Assembly: GCA_046262715.1 (NCBI GenBank)
Contig: JBHEMG010000217.1
Location: forward strand, 4,878 to 68,877
Direction: 5' to 3'
From: Gemmatimonadales bacterium
Lineage (GTDB): Bacteria > Gemmatimonadota > Gemmatimonadetes > Gemmatimonadales > GWC2-71-9
DNA: 64,000 nt
Positions within the stretch are counted from its first letter, which is position 1. The number at the start of each line of letters is the position of its first letter. The translations under genes and the position numbers were made by a program. A model generated the notes under the pieces. The model saw only the letters and a program-made list of their open reading frames with translations, was not told where the DNA came from and searched no databases. Positions 44,667-62,804 of this stretch are shown here, one piece after another.

Positions 44667-45667
44667 ACATCACGTTGTGTATCGTTGCGCAGACCGAACG
44701 CCTAGACAAGTTTCTCGCCGACCAGCTCGCCCTTTCCCGCACACACGCCGCACGTCTCATCGCCGACAAACGCGTCAGCCTGGACGGGAAACCGCTGCGC
44801 GCCTCCGCGCTGCTCGAGCGCGGCGCCGAGATTACCGTGGAGTTTCCTCCCGAAGACCCGCCCCGCACGTACGCGCCCGCGCACGCCGAGCTCCAGTTCG
44901 TTTACGAGGACGAGCACCTGGCCGTACTCGACACACCGGCCGGACTCGTCGTGCATCCGGGCCCGGGACACTGGAACGACACGCTCGTGAATGTGCTGGT
45001 GGGGCGGGGCACCGACCTGTCCGGAGGATCGACCGAAGGACGGCCGGGAATCGTGCATCGCCTCGATCGTGATACCTCGGGACTGCTCGTCGTGGCAAAG
45101 ACGGATCTTGCGCACCGGCGTCTCGCCGGGGCGATCGAGCGGCGCGAAGTGAAGCGCGTCTACGCGGCGCTCGTGTGGGGACACCTGCGCAAGAGTCCCG
45201 TGGACATCGAGGCTCCGATCGCGCGCGATCCCAAGGAGCGCAAGCGCATGACGGTCGCGCAGGGGGGGCGCCATGCCACGACCCACGCCGCCGTCGTGGC
45301 GCGCTTCGCCCACGTCGATCTGCTGCGCGTCCGTCTCGGCACGGGCCGCACGCACCAGATTCGCGTGCACCTCGCGCATGTCGGGTGTCCCGTCGTGGGC
45401 GACCGCGAGTATGCATTCGGCGGCAGCCGCCGGGTCAATCCGACCTCGCGCGCGGAGGCCGAGCGGCTCGAGGCGCTCGCGCCGCGACAGCTGCTGCACG
45501 CCGCCGCGTTGTCGTTCACGCATCCCGTGAGCGGCGCGCCGATAACGCTCGTGTCGGAATGGCCCGCGGATTTGCGGCCCGCCCTTGCCGAGGCGGCGGA
45601 CGACGCCAATTTGCTTGCTCAGCTTAAACCCCTGCAGTATCTTGGCTTCTTCGCATCCGATGAATGA
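44663..45667 (+). CDS. rluD: 23S rRNA pseudouridine synthase, RluA/RluD family
   Basis: The ORF is trimmed to TTG 44663 (TTGA overlap). It has an S4-like N-terminus (RLDKFLADQL…), the catalytic motif HRLDRDTSGLLVVAK, and …GRTHQIRVHLA…. Confidence 0.88.
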   Translation: MNITLCIVAQTERLDKFLADQLALSRTHAARLIADKRVSLDGKPLRASALLERGAEITVEFPPEDPPRTYAPAHAELQFVYEDEHLAVLDTPAGLVVHPGPGHWNDTLVNVLVGRGTDLSGGSTEGRPGIVHRLDRDTSGLLVVAKTDLAHRRLAGAIERREVKRVYAALVWGHLRKSPVDIEAPIARDPKERKRMTVAQGGRHATTHAAVVARFAHVDLLRVRLGTGRTHQIRVHLAHVGCPVVGDREYAFGGSRRVNPTSRAEAERLEALAPRQLLHAAALSFTHPVSGAPITLVSEWPADLRPALAEAADDANLLAQLKPLQYLGFFASDE

Positions 45668-46172
45668 AGGAAGCCTCGTCTCCGCCCGCTTATTGCTGTT
45701 CCGCGTCGGAACACTGGCGTGTGCAGCCGAGGTGGAACAGGTGCGGGAGATTCTCCCGCGGCTCCCAACGACGCGTATCCCGGGCGCGCCCCCGGTTGTC
45801 GCGGGGCTCGTGAATGTCCGCGGCACGCTGGTGACGGTCGTGGAAGGGTGGCGCGCGCTGGGGCAGGATGCTCCTCCAGCCGGTCCCGCCGCAAGCCTCC
45901 CGAATCAAACGTCCGAGCCCGCGCCCGACGCGGTGGGAGGGTCCACGATCATCCTCGAGATCGCCTTGGTTGCGGGCGACAAGGGGCGCGTGATCGGCTT
46001 CACGGTGGATGAAGTGATGGACATGGTGTCCGGGGGCGACGCGAGCCTGGAAGACCGCGCCGAGCTGCCTGGCGTCGACGACGCGCTGGTGCGGGCCGTT
46101 GGGAGGTGCAACGGCGAGCTGTTCATCGTCTTGAACGTGGCGGCGTTGCTGGGCCCGATTCTGACAACTTAA
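45660..46172 (+). CDS. cheW: CheW-like coupling protein
   Basis: The ORF is trimmed to ATG 45660, overlapping the rluD stop by 8 nt. CheW-domain pattern: LLLFRVGTLACAAEVEQVREILP…PGAPPVVAGLVNVRGTLVTVV…FTVDEV…LFIVLNVAALL. Confidence 0.8.
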   Translation: MNEGSLVSARLLLFRVGTLACAAEVEQVREILPRLPTTRIPGAPPVVAGLVNVRGTLVTVVEGWRALGQDAPPAGPAASLPNQTSEPAPDAVGGSTIILEIALVAGDKGRVIGFTVDEVMDMVSGGDASLEDRAELPGVDDALVRAVGRCNGELFIVLNVAALLGPILTT

Positions 46173-46182
46173 GGAGCGAGCG

Positions 46183-46545
46183 GTGAGCCACACGGTTCTC
46201 GTCTGTGACGACGCCATCTTCATGCGCACGATGATCACCGATATTCTGGCGCAGGCCGGATTCGAGGTGGTCGGGGAGGCGGAAACGGGGACCCAGGCGG
46301 TGGAGAAGTACCGGCAGCTGAAGCCGGACCTGGTCACCATGGACATCGTGATGCCGGATATGGGCGGCATCGACGCCGTGCGCGAAATCGTAAAGCAGGA
46401 CCCCGACGCCAAGATCCTGATGTGCAGCGCGATGGGCCAGCAGGCGCTGGTCGTCGAAGCGATTCAGGCGGGGGCCAAAGACTTCGTCGTCAAACCTTTC
46501 CAGCCTTCCCGCGTCCTCGAAGCCGTCCAGCGCGTCCTGGGATAG
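46183..46545 (+). CDS. cheY: CheY-like single-domain response regulator
   Basis: 120 aa. AAGGAG lies 7 nt upstream of the GTG start. REC motifs are VLVCDDA, DLVTMDIVMPDMGG (phospho-Asp) and KDFVVKPF. Confidence 0.92.
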   Translation: MSHTVLVCDDAIFMRTMITDILAQAGFEVVGEAETGTQAVEKYRQLKPDLVTMDIVMPDMGGIDAVREIVKQDPDAKILMCSAMGQQALVVEAIQAGAKDFVVKPFQPSRVLEAVQRVLG

Positions 46546-46547: not shown

Positions 46548-48461
46548 ATGGACCTGTCGCAGTACGCTGAGCTGTTCCTGGCCGAGAGCCGCGAGCACTT
46601 GAGCGCCTGCAATCAGTTGCTGCTCGAGTGGGAACGGAATCCCGCCGCCGCCGAGCCGGTGGGCGGCATCTTCCGCGCGGTGCACACGATCAAGGGCATG
46701 GCGGCCACGATGGGGTACGGCCGCGTCGCCGATCTCGCGCACCGCATGGAAAATCTGCTCGACCAGCTGCGTCGCAGCGGCAAGGCCCCCGGCGATGAAA
46801 CGATCCAGCTGCTGTTCCGCGGCACGGACGCGCTCGAGAAGGCGGTGACCCTGGCGGTCGCGGGCCGCGAGCGCGATGCCGATCTCGCGGTGCTCGCCGA
46901 CTTCGATCGGCTCGCGCAGCAAGCGAAGCCCGCGCTGCCGTCCGCACTGGCCCGCGTCTCGCCCGAAGCCGCGGCGCCGCCCGACGCGCCTGCCCCGCCT
47001 GTCCAAGGCGCGGCCGGCGCTCATCGCGTCGTCCAGATCACGTTGCGGGCCGAAGCGCCCCTGAAGGGCGGTCGCGCGATGCTGATCGTGCGCAAAGTGC
47101 AGACGCTCGGAACCGTGCATCGCGTCCAGCCGTCGATGACCGCGTTCGAGTCCGACGATTTCGATGGGCGGTTCACGATCGAGCTGGCGAGCGCCGCCGG
47201 CGCCGCCGACATCGAGGCGGCGGTCCGCTCCGTGGGCGACGTCGAGCGCGTCGCCATAGGTGGCGACGACTATCACCTCACTCCCGCGGAGAGCGCGGGC
47301 GGCACGGCGGGCCGCAGCCGCCACATCCGCGTCGACCTGCGCCGCCTCGACACGTTGATGGACCTGATCGGCGAGCTGGTCACCGAGCGCGGCCGGCTCA
47401 ACGACGTCGCGGCGCGCTGGATCGGTCAGGATCCGGAGATCGACGAGGTCGCGATTCAGATCTCGCGGCTCTCGGCCGATCTGCAGAACGAAATCATTCA
47501 AGCGCGCATGACGCCGGTCTGGCAGGTGTTCGACCGATTCCCTCGCCTGGTGCGCGATGTGGCGCGGCAGCTCGACAAGCAGGTGGCCTTCCGCGTCGAG
47601 GGCAAAGAGATCGAGCTCGACCGTGAAATTCTCGACGCGCTCGGTGATCCGCTCGTGCATCTGCTGCGCAACGCCGTGGATCACGGGATCGAGCTGCCCG
47701 GCGACCGTAAGCGCGCCAAGAAGAATCCCGAGGGGGAAATCGTCCTCACCGCCGTGCGCGAGCGCTCCAGCGTCGCGATCAGCATCAGCGACGACGGCCG
47801 CAGCATCGATCGGGGCGCGATTCTCGAGAAAGCCAAGCGCGAAGCAATCGTCGGTCCGCACGTCGAGGCGCTCTCGGACGACCAGTTGTTGCGCGTCCTG
47901 GCCCGGCCGGGATTCTCGACGGCCGAAGCGGTCACCAGCGTGTCGGGCCGCGGCGTCGGCATCGACGTCGCGATGACCCGCATCCGCGCGCTGGGCGGCT
48001 CGGTCGAGATCCGCACCGAGCCGGGGAAGGGCACGACCTTCATTCTGCGGCTGCCCGTGACGCTCGCCATCGTGCGGGCGCTGATCGCGGCGGTCGGGCA
48101 CGAGCGCTACGCCCTGCCGCTGACGTATGTCGCGGAGACGGTGGAATTCGGTACCGTGCCGCTCACCACGATGGAGGGTCGTGACGCGATCGTGCTGCGC
48201 GAGCGCGTGGTGCCGCTCGTCGATCTGCGCAAGCTGCTCGGAACGAACGGCGGCGCCGCCGCGCCGCCGCGCCGTCCGGTGATCGTGCTGGAGATGGGCG
48301 AGCGGCGGGCCGGGATCGTCGTCGACGGCATGTTGAGCCAGCAGGAGATCGTCGTGAAGGGATTCCACGCGCCGCAGGGGATGCTGCCGGTCTTCAGCGG
48401 CGCCACGATCATGGGCGATGGTGTTCCGGCGCTGATTCTCGATGCCGCCGGCCTCGTGTAG
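46548..48461 (+). CDS. cheA: Chemotaxis histidine kinase CheA
   Basis: The ORF is trimmed to ATG 46548. It has the Hpt motif AVHTIKGMAATMG, a dimerisation region (IRVDLRRLDTLMDLIGELV), HATPase boxes (HLLRNAVDHGIE; SDDGRSID; GRGVGIDV; GKGTTF) and a C-terminal CheW-like domain. There is no receiver domain. Confidence 0.95.
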   Translation: MDLSQYAELFLAESREHLSACNQLLLEWERNPAAAEPVGGIFRAVHTIKGMAATMGYGRVADLAHRMENLLDQLRRSGKAPGDETIQLLFRGTDALEKAVTLAVAGRERDADLAVLADFDRLAQQAKPALPSALARVSPEAAAPPDAPAPPVQGAAGAHRVVQITLRAEAPLKGGRAMLIVRKVQTLGTVHRVQPSMTAFESDDFDGRFTIELASAAGAADIEAAVRSVGDVERVAIGGDDYHLTPAESAGGTAGRSRHIRVDLRRLDTLMDLIGELVTERGRLNDVAARWIGQDPEIDEVAIQISRLSADLQNEIIQARMTPVWQVFDRFPRLVRDVARQLDKQVAFRVEGKEIELDREILDALGDPLVHLLRNAVDHGIELPGDRKRAKKNPEGEIVLTAVRERSSVAISISDDGRSIDRGAILEKAKREAIVGPHVEALSDDQLLRVLARPGFSTAEAVTSVSGRGVGIDVAMTRIRALGGSVEIRTEPGKGTTFILRLPVTLAIVRALIAAVGHERYALPLTYVAETVEFGTVPLTTMEGRDAIVLRERVVPLVDLRKLLGTNGGAAAPPRRPVIVLEMGERRAGIVVDGMLSQQEIVVKGFHAPQGMLPVFSGATIMGDGVPALILDAAGLV

Positions 48462-48476: not shown

Positions 48477-49094
48477 ATGGAAGACGTCCGTGATCTGAAA
48501 GCGCTGCAGCTCGACGCCCTGAAGGAGGTCGCCAACATCGGGGCCGGCCACGCGGCGACGGCATTATCGCAGCTCACGCACCGCCGCATCATGATTTCCG
48601 TGCCCGAGATCAACATCGCTCGGCTCGAAGACGTGCCCGGGCTGCTCGGCGATCCGCAGGAAGTCGTCGCCGCGGTGCTGATGCACATGCTGGGGGATCT
48701 GACCGGCCGCACCCTGCTGCTGTTCCCCGAGCCAGTCGGCCGGAAGCTGTGCGACATGCTGCTCAAGCGCCCGCTCGGCACGACGACCGTGTTCGAGACG
48801 ATCGAGCAGTCCTGTCTCAAGGAGGCCGGCAACATCCTTTCCGGCGCGTACATGAACGCGCTGTCGGAATTCATGGGCATGCTCCTGCTGCCCTCGGTGC
48901 CGAGCCTCGTGGTGGACCTCTCCGCCGCCGTGCTCACGACGACGTACCTGAATTTCGGACACGACCGCGACTTCGTGTTTTGCGTCGAGACGGAATTCAG
49001 CATTGAGGCGCAGGACGGATTACGCGGGCACTTCCTGCTCCTGCCCGACTTGGCGTCCCTGAAAGCTATTTTCGACGCCATTCGGTTGACTTGA
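48477..49094 (+). CDS. cheC: CheC-family CheY-P phosphatase
   Basis: 205 aa with two CheC-type repeats: LDALKEVANIGAGHAATALSQL and EQSCLKEAGNILSGAYMNALSEF. Confidence 0.8.
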   Translation: MEDVRDLKALQLDALKEVANIGAGHAATALSQLTHRRIMISVPEINIARLEDVPGLLGDPQEVVAAVLMHMLGDLTGRTLLLFPEPVGRKLCDMLLKRPLGTTTVFETIEQSCLKEAGNILSGAYMNALSEFMGMLLLPSVPSLVVDLSAAVLTTTYLNFGHDRDFVFCVETEFSIEAQDGLRGHFLLLPDLASLKAIFDAIRLT

Positions 49095-51793
49095 CGGTAT
49101 CTGAACGTGACGTAGCCGTCTTGCGGTCCTTCGCCCGCCGGATCGATCCGTCGGACGCGGGGGCGCACAACAATCTTGGCGTTCTCTACTATCAGAAAGG
49201 CCTCGTCCCCGAGGCGATCGAGCAGTTTACGCGCGCGCTCGAGCTCGATCCGCGCATGCAGGTGGCGCAGCGCAATCTCGAAATCGCGTATCACAACACC
49301 GGCTTTTACGACCGCCGGGTCGCCGAGCTGCAGGAGCGCCTGCGCCAGGCGCCCGACGACCGCGACGCGCGCTGGGAGCTCGGCCGCACCTACGCGGTGT
49401 TGGGAGCGTTCGAGGATGCGGTCGCCGAGTTCGAGGAGCTGCTCGCCCACAGACCGAAGGACGTCGCGGGGATCATCCAGCTTGGCCTGGCCGAGAAGTC
49501 ACGCGGACGCCTCGAGGTAGCCACCGAATGGTTCCTGCGCGCCGCCGAGGAGGAGCCGGACTCGTCCGTCGTCCATTTCTATCTGGGAGAGGTTTACTAC
49601 AACCGCGGACTGAATGAGCCAGCGCTCACGGCGTTGGAGCGCTCGGTGCGCCTCAACCCCGACAACGCCAATGCGCACTACCTGATGGCCTTCGTACTCG
49701 GCGACATGGGCCGCCACCAGGATGCGCGCGCGGCGTCGAAGCGCGCGATTCAGCTGAACCCGCCGCTCGCGCGCGCGCAGACGAACCTGTCGCTGGAGCG
49801 CTATCGCGCCGAACGGCAGTCCGCCGAGAAGCGCGTGCGCGACCAGCCGAGTCCGGAGGTGGCGGAGGGAAGCGAGCTGGCCCACTTCAACCTCGGCCTC
49901 GCGTTCCGGCAGAAAGGCTATTACACCGAGGCGCTCCGGGAATACCGCGTCGCGATCGAGCGTGGCGAGGATCGGCGCCTCGTGCGTCAGGCGATGGCCG
50001 AAGTGCACCTCCTGAAGCGCGACTTTACCGACGCGCTCGAGATCTACGAGTCGCTGATTCACGACGTCCCCGATTCGCCCAAACTCTGGAACGAGCGGGG
50101 CGTCGTGCTGCATCAGGCGGGGCGCACCGGCGAGGCGCTGACCTCGTACCGGCAGGCGACGGACGTCGACCCGCGCTACGCGCTGGCGTGGAATAACGTC
50201 GGCGTGGTGCTGGCGCATCAGAGCGATACCGAAGATGCGATCGAGGCGTTTCGGAAAGCACTGCAGCTCTCGCCCGACTTCGCCGGGGCGCGACTCAACC
50301 TCGCCCTGTTGCTGGCGCACCTGCGTCGCTTCCAGCTCGCGTTGGAAGCGTATCGCCAGGTGCTCGCCGTGCAGCAGGCCTCCGCGCCCGCCTGGAACGG
50401 CGTCGGCCTGGTGCTCGTCGAGCTGAAGCGCTTTCCCGACGCGCGGAATGCGTTCGTCCGCGCGGTGGAAGCCGATCCGCAGAACGCCGGCGCGCACTAT
50501 AACCTCAGCTTCACGCTCTCCAATCTCGGCGACTACGACGGCGCACTGCGCGCCACCAAGCGCGCTTTGGAGCTCGATCCCTACTACGTGTCGCAGAAAT
50601 TCGCGCTGGCGATCGACCTGCAGTACGAAACCGTCGCCATCGGCATCGTGCCCGAAATCTCCGCCGACGTGCAGGCGGAGAATCTCGGAACGGAGTTCGC
50701 GTTCGATCAGCGGCTGCTCGACAACATCTTTCAGGAGCTCGCGCCGCCCGCGGCGGCGCCGCAGGCCACGCCCCCGGGGATCGCCAAGAAAGCCAAGGAC
50801 GATCCGCTCGCGCTGGCGCGCGACTACGTCAGCAAAGGGATGATGGATCTCGCGGTGGCCGAAGCGATGCGCGCCGTGCAGCGGGGCGCGGATCGCGGTC
50901 TCACCGCGTCGTTGCTCGGCGACATCTACGCGCGGCGCGGCCTGCATGGCGAGGCACTGGAGCGCTATCGCGAGGCGCGCACCCTCGACGGCACCAACGC
51001 GGCGGCCGCGCTGGGGGAGCTCAAGAGCCTGCTTGCGGTGGGCCGCGCCGCCGAAGCACTTCCCCTCGCGGAGGCCCTCGTCGCGACGGCACCCGACGAC
51101 GTGGAGGTGCTGGTCGCGATCGCCAAAGCACGCTCGGCGGTGGGCGACGCCGCGGGGGCGCTCACCGGACTGCGCCAGGCGCAGACGCGCGCGCCGGCCC
51201 GCGCCGATCTGCACAAACTCCAGGGCGACATCGCGCTGAAGGTGGGCGACCGCCAGGGAGCGCGGCAGGCGTACCGGTCGGCGCTCGATCTCGATCAGGG
51301 CTTTGTACAAGTGTGGCTCGATCTCGGACGACTGCACGAGCAGGACGAGGAATGGCCGCAGGCGCGCGCGGCGTACGAGGCGGCGCTCGAGTCACTGCCG
51401 ACCTTCCACGAGGCCTCGCTCGCCTTGGCCGACCTGCTGCGCCGGTCAGGCAGTGTGCGTGCCGCGATCGTCCGGCTCGCCGAAATGCTGGAGCAAGATC
51501 CCTACGACATGGACGCGCTGCTCCTGCTCGGCCGCGCGCTGCTCGATGACAAGCATGATGCCGAGGCGCTGGAAGCGTTCCGCCGGGCTTTGAAATTTGA
51601 TCCCGAGCACACCGCGGCCCTGTTCTACGTCGGCGCGACGCTCGCGCGGCTGCAGCGCTATACCGAAGCCGTCGCGGCGTGGGACCGCGTGACGCGCATC
51701 GATCCCGCCGGCCCGTTCGCCCAGCGCGCGCGCATGCACGCGCGCACGGCGGTCGACCTGCAGCACATTTTCTCCACCTCGGACGCGGCGTAG
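49091..51793 (+). CDS. Large tetratricopeptide-repeat protein (900 aa)
   Basis: The TTG start overlaps the cheC stop (TTGA). TPR consensus recurs throughout (…AHNNLGVLYYQKGLVPEAIEQFTRALELDP…, …AWNNVGVVLAHQSDTEDAIEAFRKALQLSP…). No other domain is seen. Confidence 0.85.
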   Translation: MTVSERDVAVLRSFARRIDPSDAGAHNNLGVLYYQKGLVPEAIEQFTRALELDPRMQVAQRNLEIAYHNTGFYDRRVAELQERLRQAPDDRDARWELGRTYAVLGAFEDAVAEFEELLAHRPKDVAGIIQLGLAEKSRGRLEVATEWFLRAAEEEPDSSVVHFYLGEVYYNRGLNEPALTALERSVRLNPDNANAHYLMAFVLGDMGRHQDARAASKRAIQLNPPLARAQTNLSLERYRAERQSAEKRVRDQPSPEVAEGSELAHFNLGLAFRQKGYYTEALREYRVAIERGEDRRLVRQAMAEVHLLKRDFTDALEIYESLIHDVPDSPKLWNERGVVLHQAGRTGEALTSYRQATDVDPRYALAWNNVGVVLAHQSDTEDAIEAFRKALQLSPDFAGARLNLALLLAHLRRFQLALEAYRQVLAVQQASAPAWNGVGLVLVELKRFPDARNAFVRAVEADPQNAGAHYNLSFTLSNLGDYDGALRATKRALELDPYYVSQKFALAIDLQYETVAIGIVPEISADVQAENLGTEFAFDQRLLDNIFQELAPPAAAPQATPPGIAKKAKDDPLALARDYVSKGMMDLAVAEAMRAVQRGADRGLTASLLGDIYARRGLHGEALERYREARTLDGTNAAAALGELKSLLAVGRAAEALPLAEALVATAPDDVEVLVAIAKARSAVGDAAGALTGLRQAQTRAPARADLHKLQGDIALKVGDRQGARQAYRSALDLDQGFVQVWLDLGRLHEQDEEWPQARAAYEAALESLPTFHEASLALADLLRRSGSVRAAIVRLAEMLEQDPYDMDALLLLGRALLDDKHDAEALEAFRRALKFDPEHTAALFYVGATLARLQRYTEAVAAWDRVTRIDPAGPFAQRARMHARTAVDLQHIFSTSDAA

Positions 51794-51796: not shown

Positions 51797-52939
51797 ATGG
51801 CGATCGAAGGACCGCTACGCGAGCTCGGCATCCACGACGTCTTCCAGCTGCTCGACTTGAGCCGCAAGACGGGCGCGCTGCGCGTGACCTCCGAGCTGCG
51901 CCATAACGAGGGCAAGATCTACTTCGATAACGGCGTTGTCATCTCCGCCGAGATCCGCAGCAACCCGCACCCGCTGGGCGCGCTCTTGCTGCGCACGGGG
52001 AAAATCACGGAATCCGATCTCGAGCGCGCGCGAGACATGCAGCAGCGTCAGGGCGACAAGCGCCGGCTCGGCGAAATCTTCGTCGCGCTCGGCGTCATCA
52101 CGCCGCGCGAGGTGGAGCGTCAGATCCGCTTCCAGATCGAGGAAGTGGTGTTCGAGGTGATGAGCTGGAATGAGGGGTACTTCTCGTTCGCCGAGGACTC
52201 CGAAGCCAAAGTGCCGACGGAAGTGACCGTCCGCATTCCGGTCGAGGCGCTGCTTATGGAAGGCGCGCGGCGCATCGACGAATGGTCACGTATCGAGAAC
52301 CGTATTCCGCATGTGGGCGTCGTGCCGTCGCTCGCTCCGCCGCCGCCAGAGGGCGTGGGCGGTGAGCTGGATTTGCTGCCGCCGGAATGGGAGGTGCTGG
52401 CGCTCATCGATGGCCAGCGTTCCGTCCGCGGCTTGGCGACTGAGCTGGGGCGCTCGGATTTCGAAGTGGCCAAGACGCTGTTCGGCCTCGAGAGCGCGGC
52501 GGTCATCGTGCTCGTCGATCCCGGAACGAGCAAGCGCGGCGGTGCGAGCACCGCCGTCGATCTCACCGAGCTGGTGGCGAAGGCCGAGCGCGCGCTGCAG
52601 GACAAGGATCTCGACGCCGCGCGCGCGGCCGCGGAGCAGGCGGGCAGCATGCAGCCGCATGACGCGACGGTCCACCTCCTGCTTGGGCGCATCCATCTGG
52701 CGCAGGGCCACGGCTCTGCCGCCGCGGAGGAGCTGCGGCGCGCGCTGCGACTCGACCCGCTGCTGGCCGCGGCGCATCGCCAGCTCGGGTACGCGCTCGT
52801 GTCGATGGGGCGCTTCGGCGAGGCGGTGCAGAGCTGGGATCACTGGGAACGGCTTGCCGCCCGCAGCCCCGAGGAAGAGGCGCAGCGCGAGGACGTGCAA
52901 CGGGCGCGCGAGGCCGCGAGAGTGTTCAGCCATGGCTGA
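51797..52939 (+). CDS. PATAN/DUF4388 domain protein with C-terminal TPRs
   Basis: 380 aa. The N-terminal signature GPLRELGIHDVFQLLDLSRKTGALRV…GKIYFDNGVVISA… is followed by …WNEGYFSFAED. There is a helical insertion with two RLGxxL…Q motifs and a C-terminal TPR (…VHLLLGRIHLAQGHGSAAAEELRRALRLDP…). Confidence 0.8.
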   Translation: MAIEGPLRELGIHDVFQLLDLSRKTGALRVTSELRHNEGKIYFDNGVVISAEIRSNPHPLGALLLRTGKITESDLERARDMQQRQGDKRRLGEIFVALGVITPREVERQIRFQIEEVVFEVMSWNEGYFSFAEDSEAKVPTEVTVRIPVEALLMEGARRIDEWSRIENRIPHVGVVPSLAPPPPEGVGGELDLLPPEWEVLALIDGQRSVRGLATELGRSDFEVAKTLFGLESAAVIVLVDPGTSKRGGASTAVDLTELVAKAERALQDKDLDAARAAAEQAGSMQPHDATVHLLLGRIHLAQGHGSAAAEELRRALRLDPLLAAAHRQLGYALVSMGRFGEAVQSWDHWERLAARSPEEEAQREDVQRAREAARVFSHG

Positions 52940-55164: not shown

Positions 55165-57107
55165 CGAGCACCCTCAATCCGCGCTTCACCTTCGAGACGT
55201 TCGTGGTGGGCGCGGCCAACCGTCTGGCGGTCACGGCGGGGCGTACCGTCGCCGAGAATCCGGGGTCCGCCTACAACCCCCTCTTCATCTATAGTGGCTC
55301 CGGGCTCGGCAAGACGCACGTGCTCATGGGTATCGGGCACGCCGCCAAGACGCTCGCGCCACAGCTCAACATCGAATACCTGACGCTGGACGAGTACGTC
55401 GAAGCGTTTCATGCGGCGATCGCGGCTGGGCAAGGGGATGCTTTCCGTCGCCGCTTCCAGAACGTCGACGTGCTGCTCGTGGACGACGTGCAGTTTCTCA
55501 CCAATCGCAAAGAGATGCAGGCTGAGCTGCTGCGACTTACGGAAGCGCTGCAGCAGGCGGGCCATCAGATCGTGCTCGCCAGCGATCGGCCGCCCGCGGA
55601 GATCGCGGATCTGGACGAGCGGCTGATCTCCCGCTTTTCCGGCGGCTTGGTCGTCGACATGGGCATTCCCGATTATGAGACGCGCGTCGCGATCCTGCGC
55701 CGCAAAACGGAGGAGCGCGGCACATCGTTCCAGCCAGGCGTGCTCGAGGCCGTCGCAAAGATCGAACATCCCAACGTGCGGGAGCTGATGGGGGCGCTGA
55801 ACCGCCTGATCGCCTTTCAGGCGGTCAACGAAACGCCGATCAACGAAGCAGCTGCGCGGCAGGTGCTCGGCGTTCCGACCGCTGCGGGATCGCCCGCCGC
55901 CGCCGCTCCCGCCCCACCTGCGGCCGCGGCACCGGATGAGTTTTCGGAGTTCCTCAGTGACGTCACGGTCACGGTAGGAAAGGCCGTCGAGGCGTGGCGC
56001 GCGCGCGTGGCCGAGGCGGTGCTGCGCTGGGAAGGGGAAGGGTATCGCACCGGCCGGCTCGAGAAGCTGCTGGACCAGGAAACACCGGCCGCCGTGGATG
56101 AAGCGATCGCGGCCTACATCCAGGACGTGGATCGGCTCAAGGCCCTCGAAGCGGACGTCGCGATGCTCGATCCGCAAGCAGCGGGCGAGAAAGTGTTCCG
56201 CGATCCGGACCGCATGGCGGAAGCCGAAGCCGCGGCCGCCAAGGTCCGTGAGGGTGCGGCGCCCCCGCCGGCCCCGTCGGCCGCATTTCCGCTGGAGAGC
56301 TACGTCGCCGGTCCCTCCAACGAAGTCGCGCTCAACGCGGCGCGCGACGCGATCGCCGCGCCGGGCAAGAAATACAACCCGCTCGTGATCGTGGGAAAAA
56401 GCGGCCAGGGAAAGACGCACCTCCTCAACGCCATCGGTTTGGAGCTGGCGAAGCGGAAGAAAGCGGTCGTGGCCTGTTTGTCTACGCAGCAATTCGTGGA
56501 CGAGCTGATCGCCGCGATCGACGGTAATCGCGTTGACTGGTGGCGGGCGCGCTACCGCCGGGCGACGGCGCTGCTGCTAGACGACATTCAGCTGCTCGCG
56601 GGCAAGGACCGGACGCAAGAGGAGCTGTTCAATCTCTTCAATCAATTTGTCGAAGGCGATCGCCAGCTCGTCTTCACCGCGCCCGCGCACCCCAATACGC
56701 TCCAGGGGCTGGAGGAGCGCATCGTGTCGCGGCTCGAGGGCGGGCTGGTCGCGGAGATCGGCGAGCCAGACAAGGAAGTGAAGCGCGCCGCACTCGAGCG
56801 GCTCCTCAAGAACCAGCGTGTTCCCACCGAAGCGGCGCTCCTCGATTACCTCGCCGATCGTCCCGCCGATTCGGTGCGCAGCTTGACCGCCGTGGTGCAG
56901 CGCGTGGTGGAAGCGGCCGCGGCGCAGGACGCGCCCGTCACCGCCGGTCTGGCTCGCGACGTGCTCGAGGCGCCCGCGCCGCGGCGTACGACGGGGCTGC
57001 GCACGAGCGGCATCGTCGTGTCGAGCGCCGGTGGCGTGCGCAGCCGCGAGAAAATGGTGTGGGATTGGCCGTCGTCGGCGGACCGCGTCATAGAGGATTT
57101 GCGCTAG
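55161..57107 (+). CDS. Tandem DnaA-domain-III (Hda-like) AAA+ ATPase, no DNA-binding domain
   Basis: 648 aa with an ATGA overlap with mglA. Module 1: LNPRFTFETFVVGAANRLA, Walker A GSGLGKTH (55296-55316), Walker B VLLVDDVQF, SDRPPAEI…ERLISRF, PDYETRVAIL, NVRELMGALNRL. Module 2: FPLESYVAGPSNEVA, GKSGQGKTH (56394-56417), ALLLDDIQL, …ERIVSRL, PDKEVKRAAL. No domain I/II and no domain IV HTH recognised. Confidence 0.85.
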   Translation: MTSTLNPRFTFETFVVGAANRLAVTAGRTVAENPGSAYNPLFIYSGSGLGKTHVLMGIGHAAKTLAPQLNIEYLTLDEYVEAFHAAIAAGQGDAFRRRFQNVDVLLVDDVQFLTNRKEMQAELLRLTEALQQAGHQIVLASDRPPAEIADLDERLISRFSGGLVVDMGIPDYETRVAILRRKTEERGTSFQPGVLEAVAKIEHPNVRELMGALNRLIAFQAVNETPINEAAARQVLGVPTAAGSPAAAAPAPPAAAAPDEFSEFLSDVTVTVGKAVEAWRARVAEAVLRWEGEGYRTGRLEKLLDQETPAAVDEAIAAYIQDVDRLKALEADVAMLDPQAAGEKVFRDPDRMAEAEAAAAKVREGAAPPPAPSAAFPLESYVAGPSNEVALNAARDAIAAPGKKYNPLVIVGKSGQGKTHLLNAIGLELAKRKKAVVACLSTQQFVDELIAAIDGNRVDWWRARYRRATALLLDDIQLLAGKDRTQEELFNLFNQFVEGDRQLVFTAPAHPNTLQGLEERIVSRLEGGLVAEIGEPDKEVKRAALERLLKNQRVPTEAALLDYLADRPADSVRSLTAVVQRVVEAAAAQDAPVTAGLARDVLEAPAPRRTTGLRTSGIVVSSAGGVRSREKMVWDWPSSADRVIEDLR

Positions 57108-57108: not shown

Positions 57109-58725
57109 ATGGCCATCAAGGGCTCGCTCAAAGAGGCGTCGCTGCCCGACGTGCTGCAGCTGCTCGCGCTGGGACAGAAAACCGGCTGCCTGTCGATCGC
57201 CGACCGCTCGAACTTCGGCTACATCTACTTCGACAAAGGCCGCATCGCGTACGCATCGATTGTGAATCGCCGCGATCGCCTCGGCGACATCCTGGTGAAG
57301 CACGAGAAGATCACCCAGGAGCAGCTCGACGCCGCCATTCACCGCCAGGCAAAGGCACGTGACAAAAAGCTGGGCGAGATCCTCGTCAGCCAGGGCGTGA
57401 TCTCGCAGCAGGAGCTGGAGCGCTACATGCGCATGCAGATCGAAGAGTCGGTCTACTACCTGTTCACCTGGACCCAGGGCACGTTCAACTTCGAGGCCGA
57501 TGTCCGCCCCGAGCAACAGGACTTCCTGGTCAACATCAACCCCGAGTCCTTGCTGCTCGAGGGGGCGCGCCGGGTGGACGAGTGGGGGCTGATCGAGAAA
57601 AAAATCCCCTCGTTCGATTTGATCTTTCTCGTCGATCGCGACCGGCTCGCGATCAGCGACGCCAAGCTCACGGAGATGCAGGACCGGCTGCTGCCGTTGC
57701 TCGACGGCTCGCGCGACGTGAACCAGGTCATCGAAGATTCGGGGCTCGGCGAGTTCGAAGTGGGCAAAGCGCTGTACGGGCTGGTGACCGCGGGGTTCCT
57801 GCATCGCGCCGGACGCACCGCCAGCGCCGAAGACCTGAAGATGACCGATGCGCGCGTCGAAGAGCACCGCAATCTCGGCATTGCCTTCTACAAGACCGGG
57901 ATGCTCGACGAGGCGGCGCGGGAATTCCGCCGCGTGGCCGAGCTCCGCGCGACCGATGCGAACGCGCATTTCTTCATCGGCCTCGTCGCCTTGAAGCAGG
58001 CGCGTTGGCGCGAAGCGATGGAAGCGCTGCGGCTCGCCGCCGAGAAGGGCGGCTCGCGCCCGGCCGTGCTGCATAATCTCGGGCTTGCCTACGAGCAGCT
58101 CGGCCGCCTCGAAGAGGCGGAGGCGGCCTATTCCGAGGCCGCGTCACGCGCGAAGACCGATCCGCGCGTGTACGTGGGCTGGGGTATCGTGACGCTGAAG
58201 CAAGGGGACCACGCCGCGGCCGCCGGCCGGCTCGATCGCGCCAAAGAGCTGTTTGCCGAGCGGGTCCCGCCGATCTGGTTCTGGGCGCGCGCGCTCGCCG
58301 CGGCCGCGGCCGGAGACTTTGAGACCGCGGAGCAGGTCGCGGTGCAGGCGGTGGAGGCACATCCGCAGCATGGCGTGCTGCGCAACAACCTCGCGGTGTT
58401 GCACGAGCTGGCCGGCGAGCTCCCGAAGGCCGAGGACCTGGCGCGTGCGGCCTTGCAGGACGAGCCGTCGCTGCCGCAGCTCTCCAAAAATCTTGGCGAT
58501 CTCGCCTACCGTGGCTCGCGCTATGATGAAGCCTGGGACCTCTATCAGCGCGCCGTCGAGCTCGCGCCCGAGCTCGGCGACGACGTCTACTTCAAGCTTG
58601 GCAACATCGCCTACAAGCGGAACGACCGCGCGCAGGCGAACGCGTTGTGGCGCCGCGCCCTCGACCTGAATCCCAAGCACGAACTGGTGAAAGCGAATCT
58701 GGAAACATTGAGCACCTTGTCGTGA
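57109..58725 (+). CDS. PATAN/DUF4388 domain protein with long C-terminal TPR array
   Basis: 538 aa. The N-terminus is GSLKEASLPDVLQLLALGQKTGCLSI…GYIYFDKGRIAYA…WTQGTFNFE. There is a helical insertion with two RLG/KLG…Q motifs and about 7 C-terminal TPRs (…EHRNLGIAFYKTGMLDEAAREFRRVAELRA…). Confidence 0.8.
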   Translation: MAIKGSLKEASLPDVLQLLALGQKTGCLSIADRSNFGYIYFDKGRIAYASIVNRRDRLGDILVKHEKITQEQLDAAIHRQAKARDKKLGEILVSQGVISQQELERYMRMQIEESVYYLFTWTQGTFNFEADVRPEQQDFLVNINPESLLLEGARRVDEWGLIEKKIPSFDLIFLVDRDRLAISDAKLTEMQDRLLPLLDGSRDVNQVIEDSGLGEFEVGKALYGLVTAGFLHRAGRTASAEDLKMTDARVEEHRNLGIAFYKTGMLDEAAREFRRVAELRATDANAHFFIGLVALKQARWREAMEALRLAAEKGGSRPAVLHNLGLAYEQLGRLEEAEAAYSEAASRAKTDPRVYVGWGIVTLKQGDHAAAAGRLDRAKELFAERVPPIWFWARALAAAAAGDFETAEQVAVQAVEAHPQHGVLRNNLAVLHELAGELPKAEDLARAALQDEPSLPQLSKNLGDLAYRGSRYDEAWDLYQRAVELAPELGDDVYFKLGNIAYKRNDRAQANALWRRALDLNPKHELVKANLETLSTLS

Positions 58726-59507
58726 GCGAGGGAGGTGCCCAGGACTCGTTCGAGGCATTGACGAACAAGATCTCGCGCGAGCGCGGAGTGAGCTGCGGGT
58801 CGTACAAGGACAAATGCCTGAAGCGGCGCATCGCCGTGCGCATGCGCGCGCGCGGCGTCCACACCTACGCAGACTACGCCAAGGTGCTCGACGCGGATGC
58901 GCGCGAATATCAGGAGCTGCTCGACACGCTCACGATCAACGTCACGAAATTCTTTCGCAACGCGGAGATGTGGTCCGCGCTCCGGCCACACCTCCACACG
59001 CTGGCGCAGGACCGGCCCAAGCTGCGCGTCTGGTCGGCCGGCTGCGCATCGGGCGAAGAGCCCTACACGATCGCCGTCCTCCTGGCCGAGCTGGGCGTGG
59101 ACGGATCCATCGACGCGACCGATATCGACCGCCTCAGCCTCGAGCGCACACGCCAGGCCAGGTATCCCGACGCCGCGTTTTCCGAGATGCCGGCCGATGT
59201 GAAGCGCCGCTATTTCGCGGGCGGCGAGCCCGCGGCCGCCGTGCGCGGCGTGGTCCATATCCTCACACACGATCTCACCCGCGAACCGCCGCCCCATCCG
59301 CCCTACGATCTCATCGTGTGCCGGAACGTCGTCATCTATTTCGAGCGACAGGCCCAGGAGCGGCTGTTTCAGGTCTTCGTCAACGCGCTCGCGCCCAATG
59401 GCATTCTCGTGCTGGGGAAGGTCGAGACGTTGTTCGGACCGGCGCGCGAGCGCCTTACGCTGGTGGACCCGCGCGAGCGGATCTACATCAAGCCCGCGGC
59501 GTCGTGA
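58722..59507 (+). CDS. cheR: Chemotaxis protein methyltransferase CheR
   Basis: The ORF is trimmed to GTG 58722 (GTGA overlap). Motifs are INVTKFFRN, LRVWSAGCASGEEPYTIA and CRNVVIYF. Confidence 0.9.
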   Translation: MSEGGAQDSFEALTNKISRERGVSCGSYKDKCLKRRIAVRMRARGVHTYADYAKVLDADAREYQELLDTLTINVTKFFRNAEMWSALRPHLHTLAQDRPKLRVWSAGCASGEEPYTIAVLLAELGVDGSIDATDIDRLSLERTRQARYPDAAFSEMPADVKRRYFAGGEPAAAVRGVVHILTHDLTREPPPHPPYDLIVCRNVVIYFERQAQERLFQVFVNALAPNGILVLGKVETLFGPARERLTLVDPRERIYIKPAAS

Positions 59508-59986
59508 AGGAAGTCATCGTCAAGGTGGCCGATTGGGCGGCGGAGCAGGGGGACGGCGTATTAATCACGCTCGGCCTCGGCTCCTGCGTTGCGATCATGC
59601 TCCACGATCCGCAGACCAGAACCGGCGCGATGGCGCACGTGCTGCTGCCCTCGACCAGTCTGGCGCGCGACACCACCAATAGAGCGAAGTTTCCCGACAC
59701 CGCGGTCCCGCTGCTGATCGAGCGGCTCAAAGCGATAGGCGCGGATCCCCGGCGGTTGGTGGCCAAGCTCGCCGGCGGCGCCAGCATGTTCAGCCAGCTC
59801 GTCACCCCGAGCACGATCCAGATGGGGGAGCGCAATGTGCTCGCGTCCCGCAGCGCGCTGCGCAAGGCGGAGATTCCAATCCTGCGCGAAGCGGTGGGAG
59901 GTGAGCGCGGTCGCAGCGTGCGCTTCCACGTGGGGGACGGCCGGGTCGAAATCCGTTCGGTGGGAGCCGCGGCCGATGTCATCTGA
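59504..59986 (+). CDS. cheD: Chemoreceptor glutamine deamidase CheD
   Basis: The ORF is trimmed to GTG 59504 (GTGA overlap), giving 160 aa. Motifs are [17 protein letters not shown]…GAMAHVLLP…KLAGGASMF…GERN. Confidence 0.9.
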
Positions 59987-61055
59987 GGCGCGCCCGCGCG
60001 TCGTCGTTGCGGATGACAGCGCGCTGATGCGCCGGGTGCTGGTGGATGTCCTGGGCGCGCAGTTCGACGTCGTCGCCACCGCGCGCGACGGTATCGACGC
60101 GATCCGGAAGATCCATCAATACAAGCCGGACGTCGTCACGCTCGACCTCGAGATGCCGGAGCTCGATGGGCTCGGCGCGATCGGCTACATCATGTCCGAA
60201 TCACCGCTGCCGATCGTCGTCGTGAGCGCCCACGCCGGTCCCGGCACAGCGACCGCGATTCGTGCGCTGGAGCTCGGCGCGGTGGAGATCGTCGCGAAGC
60301 CGCCGCCCGATGTCTTCGGGCACGCGCGCGGCGCGCTCGAGGCCCTCGCGCCGCAGCTCGTCGACGCGGTGCGGCGGGCGCTCGCGGCCGATGTATCGCA
60401 CGTCACCGTGCTGGCGCGCCCCCCTGCGCCGGTCATGCACCCGCCGGAGCTCGCGCTGCGCGGCCGCGCCACGCTCGCGGTGGCACTCGCGGCCTCGACG
60501 GGCGGCCCACGCGCGCTCACCGACGTCGTGCCTCGGCTGCCCACTGGGCACGCCGCCGCCGTGCTCATCGTGCAACACATGCCGCCCAAGTTCACGCGCA
60601 GTCTCGCGGAGCGGCTCGATTCGATGAGCCGGCTGCGTGTGGTGGAGGGGGACGACGGCGCGCCGATCGTGGCGGATACGGCGTACGTTGCCCCGGGCGA
60701 TTATCATATGCGGGTGCGCGCCGCTCCCGATGGTCCCGTCATTGCACTCGATCAGTCCGCGCCCATCTGGGGCGTCCGGCCGGCTGCCGATCCACTGTTC
60801 CGCTCCGTCGCCGAGGTGTTCGGCGCGCGCGGTGTGGGCGTCGTGTTGACGGGAATGGGCCGGGACGGGGCGGACGGGTTGCGGGCGCTGCACGACGCCG
60901 GCGGGACCGGGCTCGCCCAGGACCGCGAAACCGCCGTCATCGCGGGCATGCCGGTCGCCGCGGTGCAGGCCGGTGGCGTCGACGCCGTGCTGCCGCTGGG
61001 CCAGATCGCCGATCGCGTTGCGGCAGAGCTGGCGCGCCGGAGGGCGTCGCGATGA
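59976..61055 (+). CDS. cheB: Chemotaxis response regulator protein-glutamate methylesterase CheB
   Basis: The ORF is trimmed to ATG 59976, an 11-nt overlap. It has REC ([11 protein letters not shown]; [14 protein letters not shown]) and an esterase domain ([12 protein letters not shown]; [10 protein letters not shown]; LTGMGRDGA). Confidence 0.92.
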
Positions 61056-61480
61056 AGGGCTACCTGCTGGTGCGCGCTGAGGGGAAGTCGTACGGCCTTC
61101 CCGTCGCGCGCGTGCTCGAAGTCGGCGATGCCACCGAAGTGCTGCAAATTCCTCATACCCTGGCCGCCATGCGAGGTCTGACACCGCTGCGCGGCCGGCT
61201 GGTTCCGCTCATTCATCTCGGCGCCTTTCTGACTGGCAGCGATGCTCCCGCACGCGCATCGAGCGCCGCGCGCACGATCGTGCTCGTCGAAGTGGGTGGA
61301 ACCGCGGGGCGCCGGCAGGTCGCGCTCGAAGTCGACGACGCGGACGTGGTCGTTCGCGAGCAACCGCTGCCGGTACCACGCGGGCAGGCGTTGCCGTGGG
61401 CAGCCGGCGTGGCGGAGGTCGAGGGCGGGACGCTGGTCCCGGTACTCGATTTGGACGCTTTGGGGGACCGGATCGGATGA
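61052..61480 (+). CDS. CheW-like domain protein
   Basis: 142 aa with an ATGA overlap. [21 protein letters not shown]…[21 protein letters not shown]…[10 protein letters not shown]… fits a CheW-like pattern. Confidence 0.72.
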
Positions 61481-61944
61481 CGACCGTCGACACGGGCGAT
61501 GAGGTCCAACTGGTGACCTTCCGGGTGGGCGGCCAGGATTTCGCGTTCAATATCTTCCAGGTGGAGCGCATCCTGCGCTACGAGGCGCCCGCGCCGCTTC
61601 CCAAAGCGCCCGATTTCCTCGAGGGCGTGCTGCAGTATCAGGGAAAAGCGATCCCGCTCGTGGACCTGCGCAAACGCCTCGGAATCGCCGCCCCGATCAA
61701 GGAAGACACGCGCACCGTGGTTCTCGAATTCGAAGGCGGCAAGATCGGCATGATCGTGGATACCGTCACGGAGGTGCTGCAGGTGGCGGCGCAGGCCGTC
61801 ACGGCGCCGCCCGGAATCGTCAAAGGGCTCGCCGCCGAATACATCGCGGGTCTTGTCGTGCAAAATGGCCGCACCATCATCGTCTTGAACACGAACAAGC
61901 TGCTGACGGCCAAGGAAAAAATGGCCCTGCAAGGAGCGGCATGA
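61477..61944 (+). CDS. cheW: CheW coupling protein
   Basis: The ORF is trimmed to ATG 61477 (ATGA overlap), giving 155 aa. QLVTFRVGGQDFAFNIFQVERILR…PKAPDFLEGVLQYQGKAIPLVDLRKRLG…GMIVDTVTEVL…IIVLNTNKLL. Confidence 0.88.
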   Translation: MTTVDTGDEVQLVTFRVGGQDFAFNIFQVERILRYEAPAPLPKAPDFLEGVLQYQGKAIPLVDLRKRLGIAAPIKEDTRTVVLEFEGGKIGMIVDTVTEVLQVAAQAVTAPPGIVKGLAAEYIAGLVVQNGRTIIVLNTNKLLTAKEKMALQGAA

Positions 61945-62804
61945 CCGAGTCGCCCGTCGCGGCGCTGCGTCGTGAATACGAGGCGATCGCGCGCCAGCTC
62001 GACGGCGCGCCGTGGGGTGCGGAGCGTGAGGCCGCCAAGCGCGAGATCATCGCCTACTTCAAGAAGGTGGATGGCATGCTGGGCGAGATGACCCAGCTCA
62101 AGGACGACATCCGCCAACTCGTGGATCGCTACAAGCAGCTCGCGGCGGATACCAAGCAGGCGGCCGCTCCCGAATTCACGGGCCAACGGCCGGCGATGCA
62201 TGCCGATCACATCGGCGCGTCAACGTTCATCGAAAAAGGATGGAGCCTCATCTCGCTGGGCGATCACGCCGGCGCGATCCAGTCACTCACCAAGGCGCTG
62301 CAGCTCTCTCCCGGGGAGACCCAGGCCGAGTCACTGCTCGGCTGGGCGCAGATGCTGCACGAGGATTACGACGACGCGCTTGGCACATTCCAGAAGGTGT
62401 TGATGAAGGAGCCGGCGAATTCGCTCGCGCGCATCAACGTCGGCTACATCTGTCTCAAGAAGCGAATTTTCGGTGAGGCAATCGAGCATCTATCGAAGGC
62501 CATCCGGCTGGATAACGACAAGAAGGCGACGTTGTACGCGCACTTTTATCTCGGGCTCGTCTATCTGCAGCGTGAGATGTACGAAGACGCCGAGACATTC
62601 TTTCAGAAAACGTTGAAGCTCGGTCCCAATCTCATCGAGGCGTACTACGAGCTGGGACGCGCGCACTGGTTCGCCGGCGATCAGGCGAAGGCCAAGTCGA
62701 CGTGGGAAGACGGTTTCAAGGCGAACAAGTTCAATCCCTGGGGCAAGAAGTGTCAGGAGATGGTTGAGCTTGTCGCCAAGGGTGAGGAGCCGCCGCGAGA
62801 CTAG
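61941..62804 (+). CDS. Coiled-coil + TPR protein
   Basis: 287 aa with an ATGA overlap. The N-terminal ~70 aa are helical and charged, followed by TPRs (…GDHAGAIQSLTKALQLSP…, …YYELGRAHWFAGDQAKAKSTWEDGFKAN). Confidence 0.75.
   Translation: MTESPVAALRREYEAIARQLDGAPWGAEREAAKREIIAYFKKVDGMLGEMTQLKDDIRQLVDRYKQLAADTKQAAAPEFTGQRPAMHADHIGASTFIEKGWSLISLGDHAGAIQSLTKALQLSPGETQAESLLGWAQMLHEDYDDALGTFQKVLMKEPANSLARINVGYICLKKRIFGEAIEHLSKAIRLDNDKKATLYAHFYLGLVYLQREMYEDAETFFQKTLKLGPNLIEAYYELGRAHWFAGDQAKAKSTWEDGFKANKFNPWGKKCQEMVELVAKGEEPPRD

Follow-up and report, generated by a model that had tools for sequence, protein, structure and literature searches.

To our knowledge, how chemosensory pathways signal to the GTPase MglA has been worked out in Myxococcus alone; its components are dispersed in the genome there, and the connectors between them have been hard to find. 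The Frz system of Myxococcus xanthus is distinguished by a CheA-CheY fusion (FrzE), a dual-receiver protein (FrzZ), FrzX and a cytoplasmic receptor (FrzCD) encoded in the cluster. Comparative work places Myxococcus mglA away from the genes of its partners, and finds some group-1 and group-5 mglA genes, as well as genes for MglB homologues, near PATAN genes (PMC4316618). Here we describe a locus in which such components stand side by side: an array of 18 genes, all on the + strand, at positions 45660 to 62804 of a 64,000-nucleotide stretch of DNA from a Gemmatimonadales bacterium of the lineage GWC2-71-9 (contig JBHEMG010000217.1; the 64-kb 'window' in what follows, position 1 being its first letter). 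It encodes a chemosensory (Che) set, MglA with Roadblock proteins, PATAN and tetratricopeptide repeat (TPR) proteins and a tandem AAA+ ATPase. An earlier note on this DNA, made from the sequence alone, had thought an operon of this composition undescribed, and our literature searches likewise brought up no description of the operon, of the Che linkage or of the tandem ATPase, the only trace being a supplementary-table entry, 'PATAN>MglA>-PATAN>', for GAU_1409 of G. aurantiaca. The linkage is real, conserved and apparently without earlier description: modules known separately are combined with an uncharacterised family of ATPases into a conserved architecture that is new. What is presumed to be a whole circuit (kinase, CheY, phosphatase, GTPase, GTPase-activating protein or GAP, extra Roadblocks, TPR scaffolds, PATAN and ATPase) is thus laid out at one place in one of the most abundant soil phyla, and the array gives a closed, directly testable list of candidate interaction partners.

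Gene calls in the window were based on third-position GC content, translation and Pfam, since the GC content of 64-70% fills a mechanical list of open reading frames with decoys; translation and Pfam place all 18 genes as follows. The array opens with the kinase half of the Che set: the coupling protein CheW1 (45660..46172; Pfam CheW, E 1.6e-20), the single-domain response regulator CheY (46183..46545; Response_reg, E 2e-31), a CheA composed of Hpt, P2, dimerisation, HATPase and CheW domains with no receiver (46548..48461; Pfam, and PDB sequence matches to E. coli and T. maritima CheA) and CheC, a CheY-P phosphatase (48477..49094; Pfam CheC, E 3.4e-22). The middle block comprises a 900-residue all-TPR protein (49091..51793; Pfam TPR families, E down to 1.8e-88), a first PATAN(DUF4388)-TPR protein (51797..52939; DUF4388 E 2.5e-32, plus TPR), a 270-residue TPR protein with a Roadblock-like C-terminus (52932..53744; Pfam TPR, hhalign), the small Roadblock/LC7 protein Robl1 (53741..54088 from an ATG, or from a GTG at 53723; Robl_LC7 E 5.8e-10, and 1.2e-5 to the Robl_LC7 protein of PDB 7f8m), an MglB-like Roadblock protein of 158 residues (54085..54561; Robl_LC7), the Ras-like GTPase MglA (54565..55164), the 648-residue tandem DnaA-type AAA+ ATPase (55161..57107; Bac_DnaA twice) and a second PATAN-TPR protein, PATAN2 (57109..58725; DUF4388 E 2.4e-40, plus TPR). 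The adaptation half and the end of the array consist of the methyltransferase CheR (58722..59507; CheR and CheR_N), the deamidase CheD (59504..59986, from a GTG at 59504; E 1.5e-28), the methylesterase CheB (59976..61055; receiver plus CheB_methylest), CheW2 (61052..61480; CheW, E 1.2e-18), CheW3 (61477..61944; CheW, E 5.3e-34) and a 287-residue TPR protein (61941..62804; Pfam TPR).

Adjacent genes are separated by gaps of 1-15 nt or share overlaps of 4-11 nt, so that the co-directional, tightly joined chain proposed in the earlier note stands; a single overlap, between the TPR-Roadblock gene and Robl1, would be 22 nt with the GTG start at 53723, and is 4 nt with the ATG at 53741. A listed frame of 96 residues at 54078-54368 proved to be a wrong-frame decoy over the MglB-like gene and the source of a false 197-nt gap before mglA. 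A frameshifted or pseudogene Roadblock at about 54366 was likewise dropped, the intact MglB-like gene at 54085-54561 lying in another frame. A scan of the + strand for terminator-like hairpins found none inside the array and none before 63769. With junctions of -22 to +15 nt and no + strand terminator-like site in the array, co-transcription is plausible. A Sigma-70 promoter scan returned one site, not above shuffled sequence, and is uninformative on internal promoters in Gemmatimonadota. The genes immediately upstream (ileS, a dksA/traR-type zinc-finger gene, lspA and rluD; window 40557-45667) are packed equally tightly, with overlaps of 1-17 nt, and run into cheW1, which shares 8 nt with the rluD stop. 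Since the packing extends upstream as far as ileS, it is not peculiar to the 18 genes and spacing alone cannot set the 5' end of the unit; the housekeeping cluster ileS-rluD and the chemosensory array may share transcription.

The GTPase is, by its sequence, a true group-1 MglA. It matches M. xanthus MglA (5ymx, E 1.6e-72) and Thermus thermophilus MglA (3t12, E 1.4e-68) over residues 1-196 of its 199, and keeps the diagnostic residues: the P-loop, Arg53, Thr78 at a position that is usually Asp, and Gln82, the catalytic residue. The segments GPGRSGKTT, TDRTLFFDF and YTVPGQV align without gaps with the M. xanthus protein. As in the mglBA operon, an mglB-like gene lies directly upstream, ending 3 nt before mglA, where a cognate Roadblock gene would be looked for. 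Its product, listed in the earlier note as simply Roadblock-like, matches M. xanthus MglB (6h5b) with an E value of 2.2e-8 and is the predicted GAP of MglA, the GAP relation following from orthology. The C-terminal 125 residues of the TPR-Roadblock protein align by hhalign with both Roadblock proteins (E 1e-4 to Robl1, 6e-5 to the MglB-like protein, Robl2), and Pfam Robl_LC7 matches its orthologues, giving three Roadblock-domain proteins in the middle block. The domain assignments of the earlier note are in this way borne out, by Pfam, by the MglA and MglB matches and, for the TPR-Roadblock protein, by hhalign. By functional analogy to SgmX and Bd2492, the 900-residue TPR protein is a candidate scaffold or MglA effector.

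By analogy, the array would work most like Frz acting on MglA/MglB, without being a Frz system. Common to the two are a kinase pathway of Che type and an MglA paired with a Roadblock GAP whose gene, mglB, is directly upstream; the extra Roadblock proteins of the array are comparable to MglC, and its likely output is pole selection for type IV pili by way of a large TPR protein (compare SgmX). Unlike the M. xanthus components, those of the array lie in one putative operon; the Che proteins are F1-like, with a stand-alone CheY, a five-domain CheA, CheC and CheD; RomR and RomX are lacking, and PATAN-TPR proteins and a tandem DnaA-type ATPase are present. None of the Frz-type architectures (the FrzE fusion, FrzZ, FrzCD, RomR/RomX) was found among the 18 genes or in the flanks. 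A precedent for a histidine kinase in one operon with a Roadblock/MglB-type protein and an MglA-family GTPase is found in the actinobacterial conservons, CvnA-D (PMC4316618; PMC13343842). There, CvnA is a membrane sensor kinase, not a CheA, CvnD is a group-2 MglA, and Che, PATAN, TPR and AAA+ genes are lacking; conversely, the array has no CvnA- or CvnC-type gene (CvnC being a domain of unknown function) and its GTPase is group-1-like.

Scanning one genome per species gave 198 that encode a relative of the ATPase, and the loci of the best 80 of these 198 (72-90% identity) were compared by tblastn with all window proteins. These 80 are from metagenome-assembled genomes (MAGs) of Gemmatimonadales, with the exception of two contigs binned elsewhere. 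The gene order is the same in all 80: all 18 genes are present in 36, the remainder being cut by contig ends, and 57 join the kinase half to MglA. Four order exceptions that had been flagged turned out to be artefacts of contig ends or thresholds. Conservation is highest for CheY (median 97.5%), MglA (91%; range 85-98%), CheC (90%; range 84-98%), the 287-residue TPR protein (86%) and PATAN2 (82%), and lowest for CheW1 (43-74%) and CheR. In public data, 318 contigs encode exactly this 120-residue CheY, which belongs to a 90%-identity cluster of 2494 members. As a separate observation, CheC is far more conserved than CheA, CheR or CheW1, which is unusual for a phosphatase. The two contigs binned elsewhere (L045 and L068) carry the array in MAGs named Myxococcales and Thermoleophilaceae; they look mis-binned, since their ATPases are 76% identical to that of the window, like those of the Gemmatimonadales loci.

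Among more distant relatives, the array recurs with small changes in a Longimicrobiales MAG and in three other lineages (ATPase 39-49% identical), and partially on a short contig with an ATPase of 33% identity; across these distant lineages the order is kept at identities of 33-49% for the ATPase and 40-50% for CheA. In a further scan of metagenomes one of the two search patterns was generic for DnaA, and 74 of the 80 loci obtained (L099-L173 except L127) were ordinary dnaA and were left out, while L094-L098 and L127 were used. The earlier note had accepted that its proposal would fall if the Che genes of relatives were never linked to mglA or PATAN genes; they are consistently linked across Gemmatimonadales, in the Longimicrobiales MAG and in the lineages with ATPases of 33-49% identity. 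The proposal survives this test, and chance does not explain the order. Conservation within Gemmatimonadales does not, on its own, prove coupling, because rluD (upstream of the array in most related loci, though inverted in L026) and the downstream peptidase gene are syntenic too. This neighbour, a Peptidase_MA_2-like gene at 62828..63676 on the + strand (Pfam E 5e-7, under the gathering score), lies 3' of the array at almost all loci, among them the Longimicrobiales MAG (L082) and the much reduced locus L089, and its membership of the unit is uncertain. Stronger arguments for coupling come from a locus with different flanks (L085) and from gene losses that proceed by blocks. Taking these together, we are highly confident that the array is a real, functionally coupled unit.

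The variant loci show which parts hold together. In L083 and L091 CheW2 and CheW3 are absent and the 287-residue TPR protein is kept. In L174, CheR, CheD, CheB and the CheWs at the end are missing; what remains is CheC with the complete middle block and the final TPR protein, the gene for PATAN2 being followed directly by the homologue of the 287-residue protein, so that the latter is retained with the GTPase/AAA+ block where the adaptation genes are gone. L085/L086, with 49% GC and different flanks, belong to the lineage named 'Candidatus Cloacimonetes bacterium 4572_55' at NCBI and have the order CheW-CheY-CheA-(STAND-like P-loop protein)-CheW-CheC-TPR-PATAN-AAA+ but no further array genes; no MglA, Roadblock, CheR, CheD or CheB genes were found in the cluster of this lineage. 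The inserted gene (L085:4035-4853) encodes a 272-residue STAND/AAA_16-like P-loop protein and stands between cheA and the gene for a 344-residue CheW-domain protein. L089 occupies the same chromosomal slot as the array (ileS...rluD / Peptidase_MA) and contains only the ATPase, PATAN2 and an MglB-like gene; its Che genes have been lost together with MglA. L088 has only the ATPase and a homologue of the large TPR protein, which therefore accompanies the AAA+ gene even without Che genes. A last locus, L087, on a 163-kb contig, carries the same array with its genes broken into many fragments; the breaks look like long-read assembly errors left uncorrected, not pseudogenes.

From these variant loci the persistent core is seen to be the ATPase with a PATAN-TPR or TPR partner. 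PATAN2 is encoded by the next gene 3' of the AAA+ gene in L089 and in every array of the window type whose contig extends that far; the exceptions are L085/L086, where the PATAN gene is upstream of the AAA+ gene, and L088, which has no PATAN gene. What persists as a unit in the variant loci is the kinase half (CheW-CheY-CheA-CheC) with the TPR/PATAN proteins and the tandem AAA+ protein, and the kinase half is more firmly attached to the ATPase core than is the adaptation half. In the loci compared, CheC is always directly upstream of the large TPR gene. The earlier description of a GTPase/PATAN/TPR/AAA+ block inserted between the two halves of one Che set therefore holds for the commonest form, but not for variants which drop the adaptation half (L174), MglA and the Roadblock proteins (L085/L086) or all Che genes (L089).

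The Che set looks F1-like, and not Frz-, Tfp- (type IV pilus) or ACF-like (alternative cellular functions), an assignment made by proxies (gene content, CheA layout and CheY identity). CheY shares about 67% of its residues with that of T. maritima (1tmy, E 1.5e-51), with the acceptor Asp and further active-site positions in register. CheA is of the classical five-domain type, with a single Hpt, a Thermotoga-type P2 and no receiver by Pfam, and its best matches among solved structures are the T. maritima and E. coli proteins. By Pfam the gene content is that of the F1 class, with CheA, CheW, CheY, CheB and CheR accompanied by CheC and CheD. F1 systems are usually taken as flagellar. The array thus shares its CheY, its CheA layout and P2 domain and its CheC/D/R/B/W complement with systems such as those of T. 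maritima, B. subtilis and archaeal archaellum control. It differs from them in having eight non-Che genes between cheC and cheR, in a TPR gene after the last cheW and in its carriers, which are probably non-flagellated soil bacteria. CheAs of the Tfp and ACF classes mostly have several Hpt domains and/or a receiver domain, and a table in the same source gives for G. aurantiaca an ACF-class CheA with a receiver domain, a protein different from the CheA of the array (PMC10782961). Tfp-class features are correspondingly lacking: CheA has one Hpt and no receiver, the PATAN domain is joined to TPR and not to a receiver, and there is no receptor gene in the array. Nor was a receptor gene found in the rest of the window or in the related loci examined.

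The clues to output point to pili. PATAN is the output domain of the Pix/Tax pathways of Synechocystis, Tfp-class systems with PatA-type PATAN-REC proteins; a Synechocystis PATAN domain binds PilB1 and suffices for output (bioRxiv 10.1101/2021.06.11.447907). The array resembles these pathways in linking a chemosensory system to PATAN, an output domain that binds the pilus motor. It differs in that both of its PATAN domains are followed by TPR repeats, with no receiver and hence no PatA-type architecture, in that CheA lacks multiple Hpt domains and a receiver, and in having no receptor gene and an added MglA/MglB and AAA+ protein. In M. xanthus, MglA and the TPR protein SgmX stimulate type IV pili (PMC7519303 and PMC7668184). 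Finally, relatives of the ATPase are fused to MshEN domains and encoded between pilD and pilB-pilT-pilC-pilS-pilR; they are 36-38% identical to the ATPase over its first module (in P0207, over part of the linker as well). MshEN domains form the N-terminus of pilus and type II secretion ATPases. Documented or contextual ties to type IV pili thus exist for three independent components of the block: MglA, PATAN and, through its relatives, the ATPase. The fusion proteins themselves, of 921-1990 residues, combine MshEN with one or two DnaA-type AAA+ modules and occur in several copies in the pil cluster (L090:2681-13179 and L093:4309-15923); no description of such MshEN-DnaA-type AAA+ fusions came up in literature searches. 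A different 738-residue relative (L092:9249-11465) has a C-terminal receiver and adjoins genes for two Hpt proteins, two REC proteins, a hybrid PAS histidine kinase and an HD-domain response regulator, suggesting phospho-signal input to the ATPase family.

The published record on the host lineage fits such an output. A survey of over 400 genomes of Gemmatimonadota reports flagellar genes in only one or two of those from soil, and type IV pilus genes in all environments but marine (PMC10581226). The soil set of that survey includes two MAGs, AG38 and AG16, of GWC2-71-9 (genus 20CM-2-65-7, 98.8-100% complete). These are L002 and L049 of our comparison, and both carry the full array, with ATPases 87-88% identical to that of the window. 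On this literature, the window organism is very probably a soil-living member of GWC2-71-9 without flagella and with pili.

On this evidence we propose the following chain. Receptors encoded elsewhere in the genome would control CheA through the CheW paralogues. CheA would phosphorylate the single CheY, CheC would dephosphorylate CheY-P, and CheR, CheB and CheD would provide adaptation, these phosphotransfer steps following from established Che biochemistry. CheY-P, directly or through the PATAN-TPR and TPR-Roadblock proteins, would then shift the balance between MglA-GTP and a GAP complex of MglB and the two other Roadblock proteins. MglA-GTP, with the 900-residue TPR protein as effector or scaffold, would select the pole at which type IV pili are active, and the tandem AAA+ protein with its fixed PATAN-TPR partner would act as an ATP-dependent assembly switch or polar scaffold, its C-terminal peptide possibly lying on a TPR domain. 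The pathway would steer twitching-type surface motility, not swimming. The whole chain, from an F1-type Che core by way of CheY-P and the MglA/MglB-Roadblock-TPR-PATAN-AAA+ module to a pilus pole that is set or switched, we judge to be evenly balanced between right and wrong. If right, the array would probably let chemical sensing steer pilus-driven surface movement in soil Gemmatimonadota, and the case suggests that bacteria can use a pathway of the F1 type, a type usually interpreted as flagellar, for a non-flagellar output.

Several points weigh against this chain. Each link from CheY to the block is one that we infer, the hard-wired route from CheA to the GTPase being hypothetical and the role proposed for the ATPase speculative, and connectors of the RomR, RomX or FrzX/FrzZ type were not seen in the cluster. 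The Che proteins resemble those of an ordinary F1 taxis system, with a CheY 67% identical to that of Thermotoga, a five-domain CheA, CheC and CheD. A dedicated receptor gene is absent from the cluster in every locus, a situation commoner for general flagellar pathways than for dedicated Tfp or ACF systems. There is no pilus gene in the 64-kb window, where a search of the sequence outside the array for flagellar, receptor or pilus genes met only housekeeping genes. The absence of flagella in the host rests on the published survey and not on the host genome, and there are cultured Gemmatimonas species with a polar flagellum (PMC9862903). Lastly, most loci keep rluD and Peptidase_MA in synteny as well, so that inheritance by itself accounts for part of the conservation.

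Some of these points would be accommodated by an ordinary F1 taxis pathway, flagellar where flagella exist, in which the block is not downstream of CheY but is a co-transcribed spatial organiser placing the chemoreceptor arrays, the flagellum or both at a pole. Elsewhere among bacteria, che or flagellar genes are accompanied by genes for functional analogues of such an organiser (ParC/ParP, PpfA and FlhF/FlhG). The F1-type features of the Che proteins and the lack of a receptor gene in the cluster are as this explanation would have them, as are the three or four CheW paralogues and the polar flagella of cultured Gemmatimonas, and TPR and Roadblock proteins with an oligomerising AAA+ protein would suit scaffolding. 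The variant loci tell against it, however, in that the block or the AAA+/PATAN core persists without any Che genes; the relatives of the ATPase lie in type IV pilus clusters rather than che or flagellar ones; the receiver-fused relative suggests that the family receives phospho-signals; and soil Gemmatimonadota, including the two array-carrying MAGs of the survey, are reported to be nearly without flagellar genes. We regard this explanation as rather unlikely.

The earlier note had counted two DnaA-like AAA+ proteins; there is a single 648-residue protein with two Bac_DnaA ATPase modules. The N-terminal module is 44-48% identical to domain III of B. subtilis DnaA (sequence match to 8bv3, E 3.2e-58). 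By Foldseek it superimposes on DnaA with a root mean square deviation of 1.2-1.5 Å (1.5 Å and E 2.4e-22 for 8bv3), and it keeps all AAA+ motifs. The second module is more diverged and Hda-like (E 1e-6); Walker A and B motifs are conserved in both. An AlphaFold2 model (predicted local distance difference test score, pLDDT, 85.5) consists of AAA+ base-plus-lid modules at residues ~1-235 and ~385-603, a helical linker at 260-365, disordered stretches and a C-terminal peptide. This peptide, REKxVWxWP at about residues 629-642, is conserved family-wide, W636 being invariant, and may dock onto a TPR domain. While the modules are those of the DnaA/Hda initiator clade in sequence and, for the first, in fold, the protein differs from DnaA and Hda in having two modules in one chain with a helical linker, in its C-terminal W-P peptide, in its signalling and polarity partners and in its relatives fused to MshEN or to a receiver. 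It also has no Pfam match to DnaA domains I and IV; true DnaA proteins carry PF08299 and PF11638, and the tandem family does not.

For distant homologues, 50%-identity representatives were searched exhaustively, which gave many full-length proteins with both modules at 30-58% identity, in at least 21 clusters at 40%. A profile search for distant homologues with the ATPase alignment returned only Gemmatimonadales proteins. A wide spread of the family outside Gemmatimonadota was considered and dropped: the only carrier with a different name is the MAG 'Candidatus Cloacimonetes bacterium 4572_55', and its nearest relatives are Gemmatimonadota MAGs. In public databases, thousands of tandem ATPases bear the name 'chromosomal replication initiator protein DnaA' or 'DnaA/Hda family protein'; given the absence of domains I and IV, such labels probably reflect systematic mis-annotation. 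A large family of DnaA-like tandem ATPases without known function is in this way brought to light, and its gene neighbours tie it to type IV pili and phosphorelays.

As to what the ATPase does in the proposed chain, one suggestion is that with its obligatory PATAN-TPR partner it forms an ATP-driven regulator of pilus polarity (type IV) of a kind not recognised before, fed phospho-signals by the chemosensory kinase and standing, in this phylum, in place of a RomR/RomX-type connector between a Che pathway and MglA/MglB, so that an initiator-clade AAA+ protein would have been re-used as a cytoplasmic polarity switch and an F1 Che pathway re-wired to pili. This is a tentative idea, more probably wrong than right in this form. 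A different role for the ATPase and its partners would be in the cell cycle or on the chromosome, through co-assembly with DnaA, say, or through binding of single-stranded DNA, the operon coupling environmental sensing or polarity to replication or division and not to motility. The closeness of the first module to DnaA domain III, in identity, superposition and motifs, and the Walker motifs conserved in both modules would be in keeping with this. The protein lacks, on the other hand, DnaA domain IV, which binds DNA, as well as domain I; its constant partners are PATAN-TPR, TPR and Roadblock proteins; and its relatives are fused to MshEN in pilus clusters or to a receiver domain. With those domains absent and its gene neighbours belonging to signalling and polarity, we set aside the idea of a replication protein as the principal interpretation and keep a chromosomal role as a very improbable rival.

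The least credence of all is due to the absence of any functional coupling, with two or three unrelated gene sets lying side by side in a compact genome and their order inherited within the phylum: tight packing that extends into ileS-lspA-rluD, synteny of rluD and Peptidase_MA in most loci and named relatives that are essentially all Gemmatimonadota are what it would lead one to see, but the order survives down to identities of 33-43% for the ATPase and about 40% for CheA, L085/L086 keep the kinase half with TPR-PATAN-AAA+ despite different flanks, gene loss is block-wise and not random, and in every complete locus the two Che halves bracket the block, with junctions that are short overlaps.

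Upstream of the housekeeping cluster, ileS is preceded by genes for a YggS-type pyridoxal-phosphate (PLP) protein, a DivIVA-domain protein and a purine nucleoside phosphorylase (PNP; window 38643-40557), and the order YggS-DivIVA-PNP-IleRS is found again in L089. Further upstream, at 35448-36302, the window encodes a DisA_N (cyclic di-AMP cyclase) domain protein and a TMEM260-like O-mannosyltransferase.

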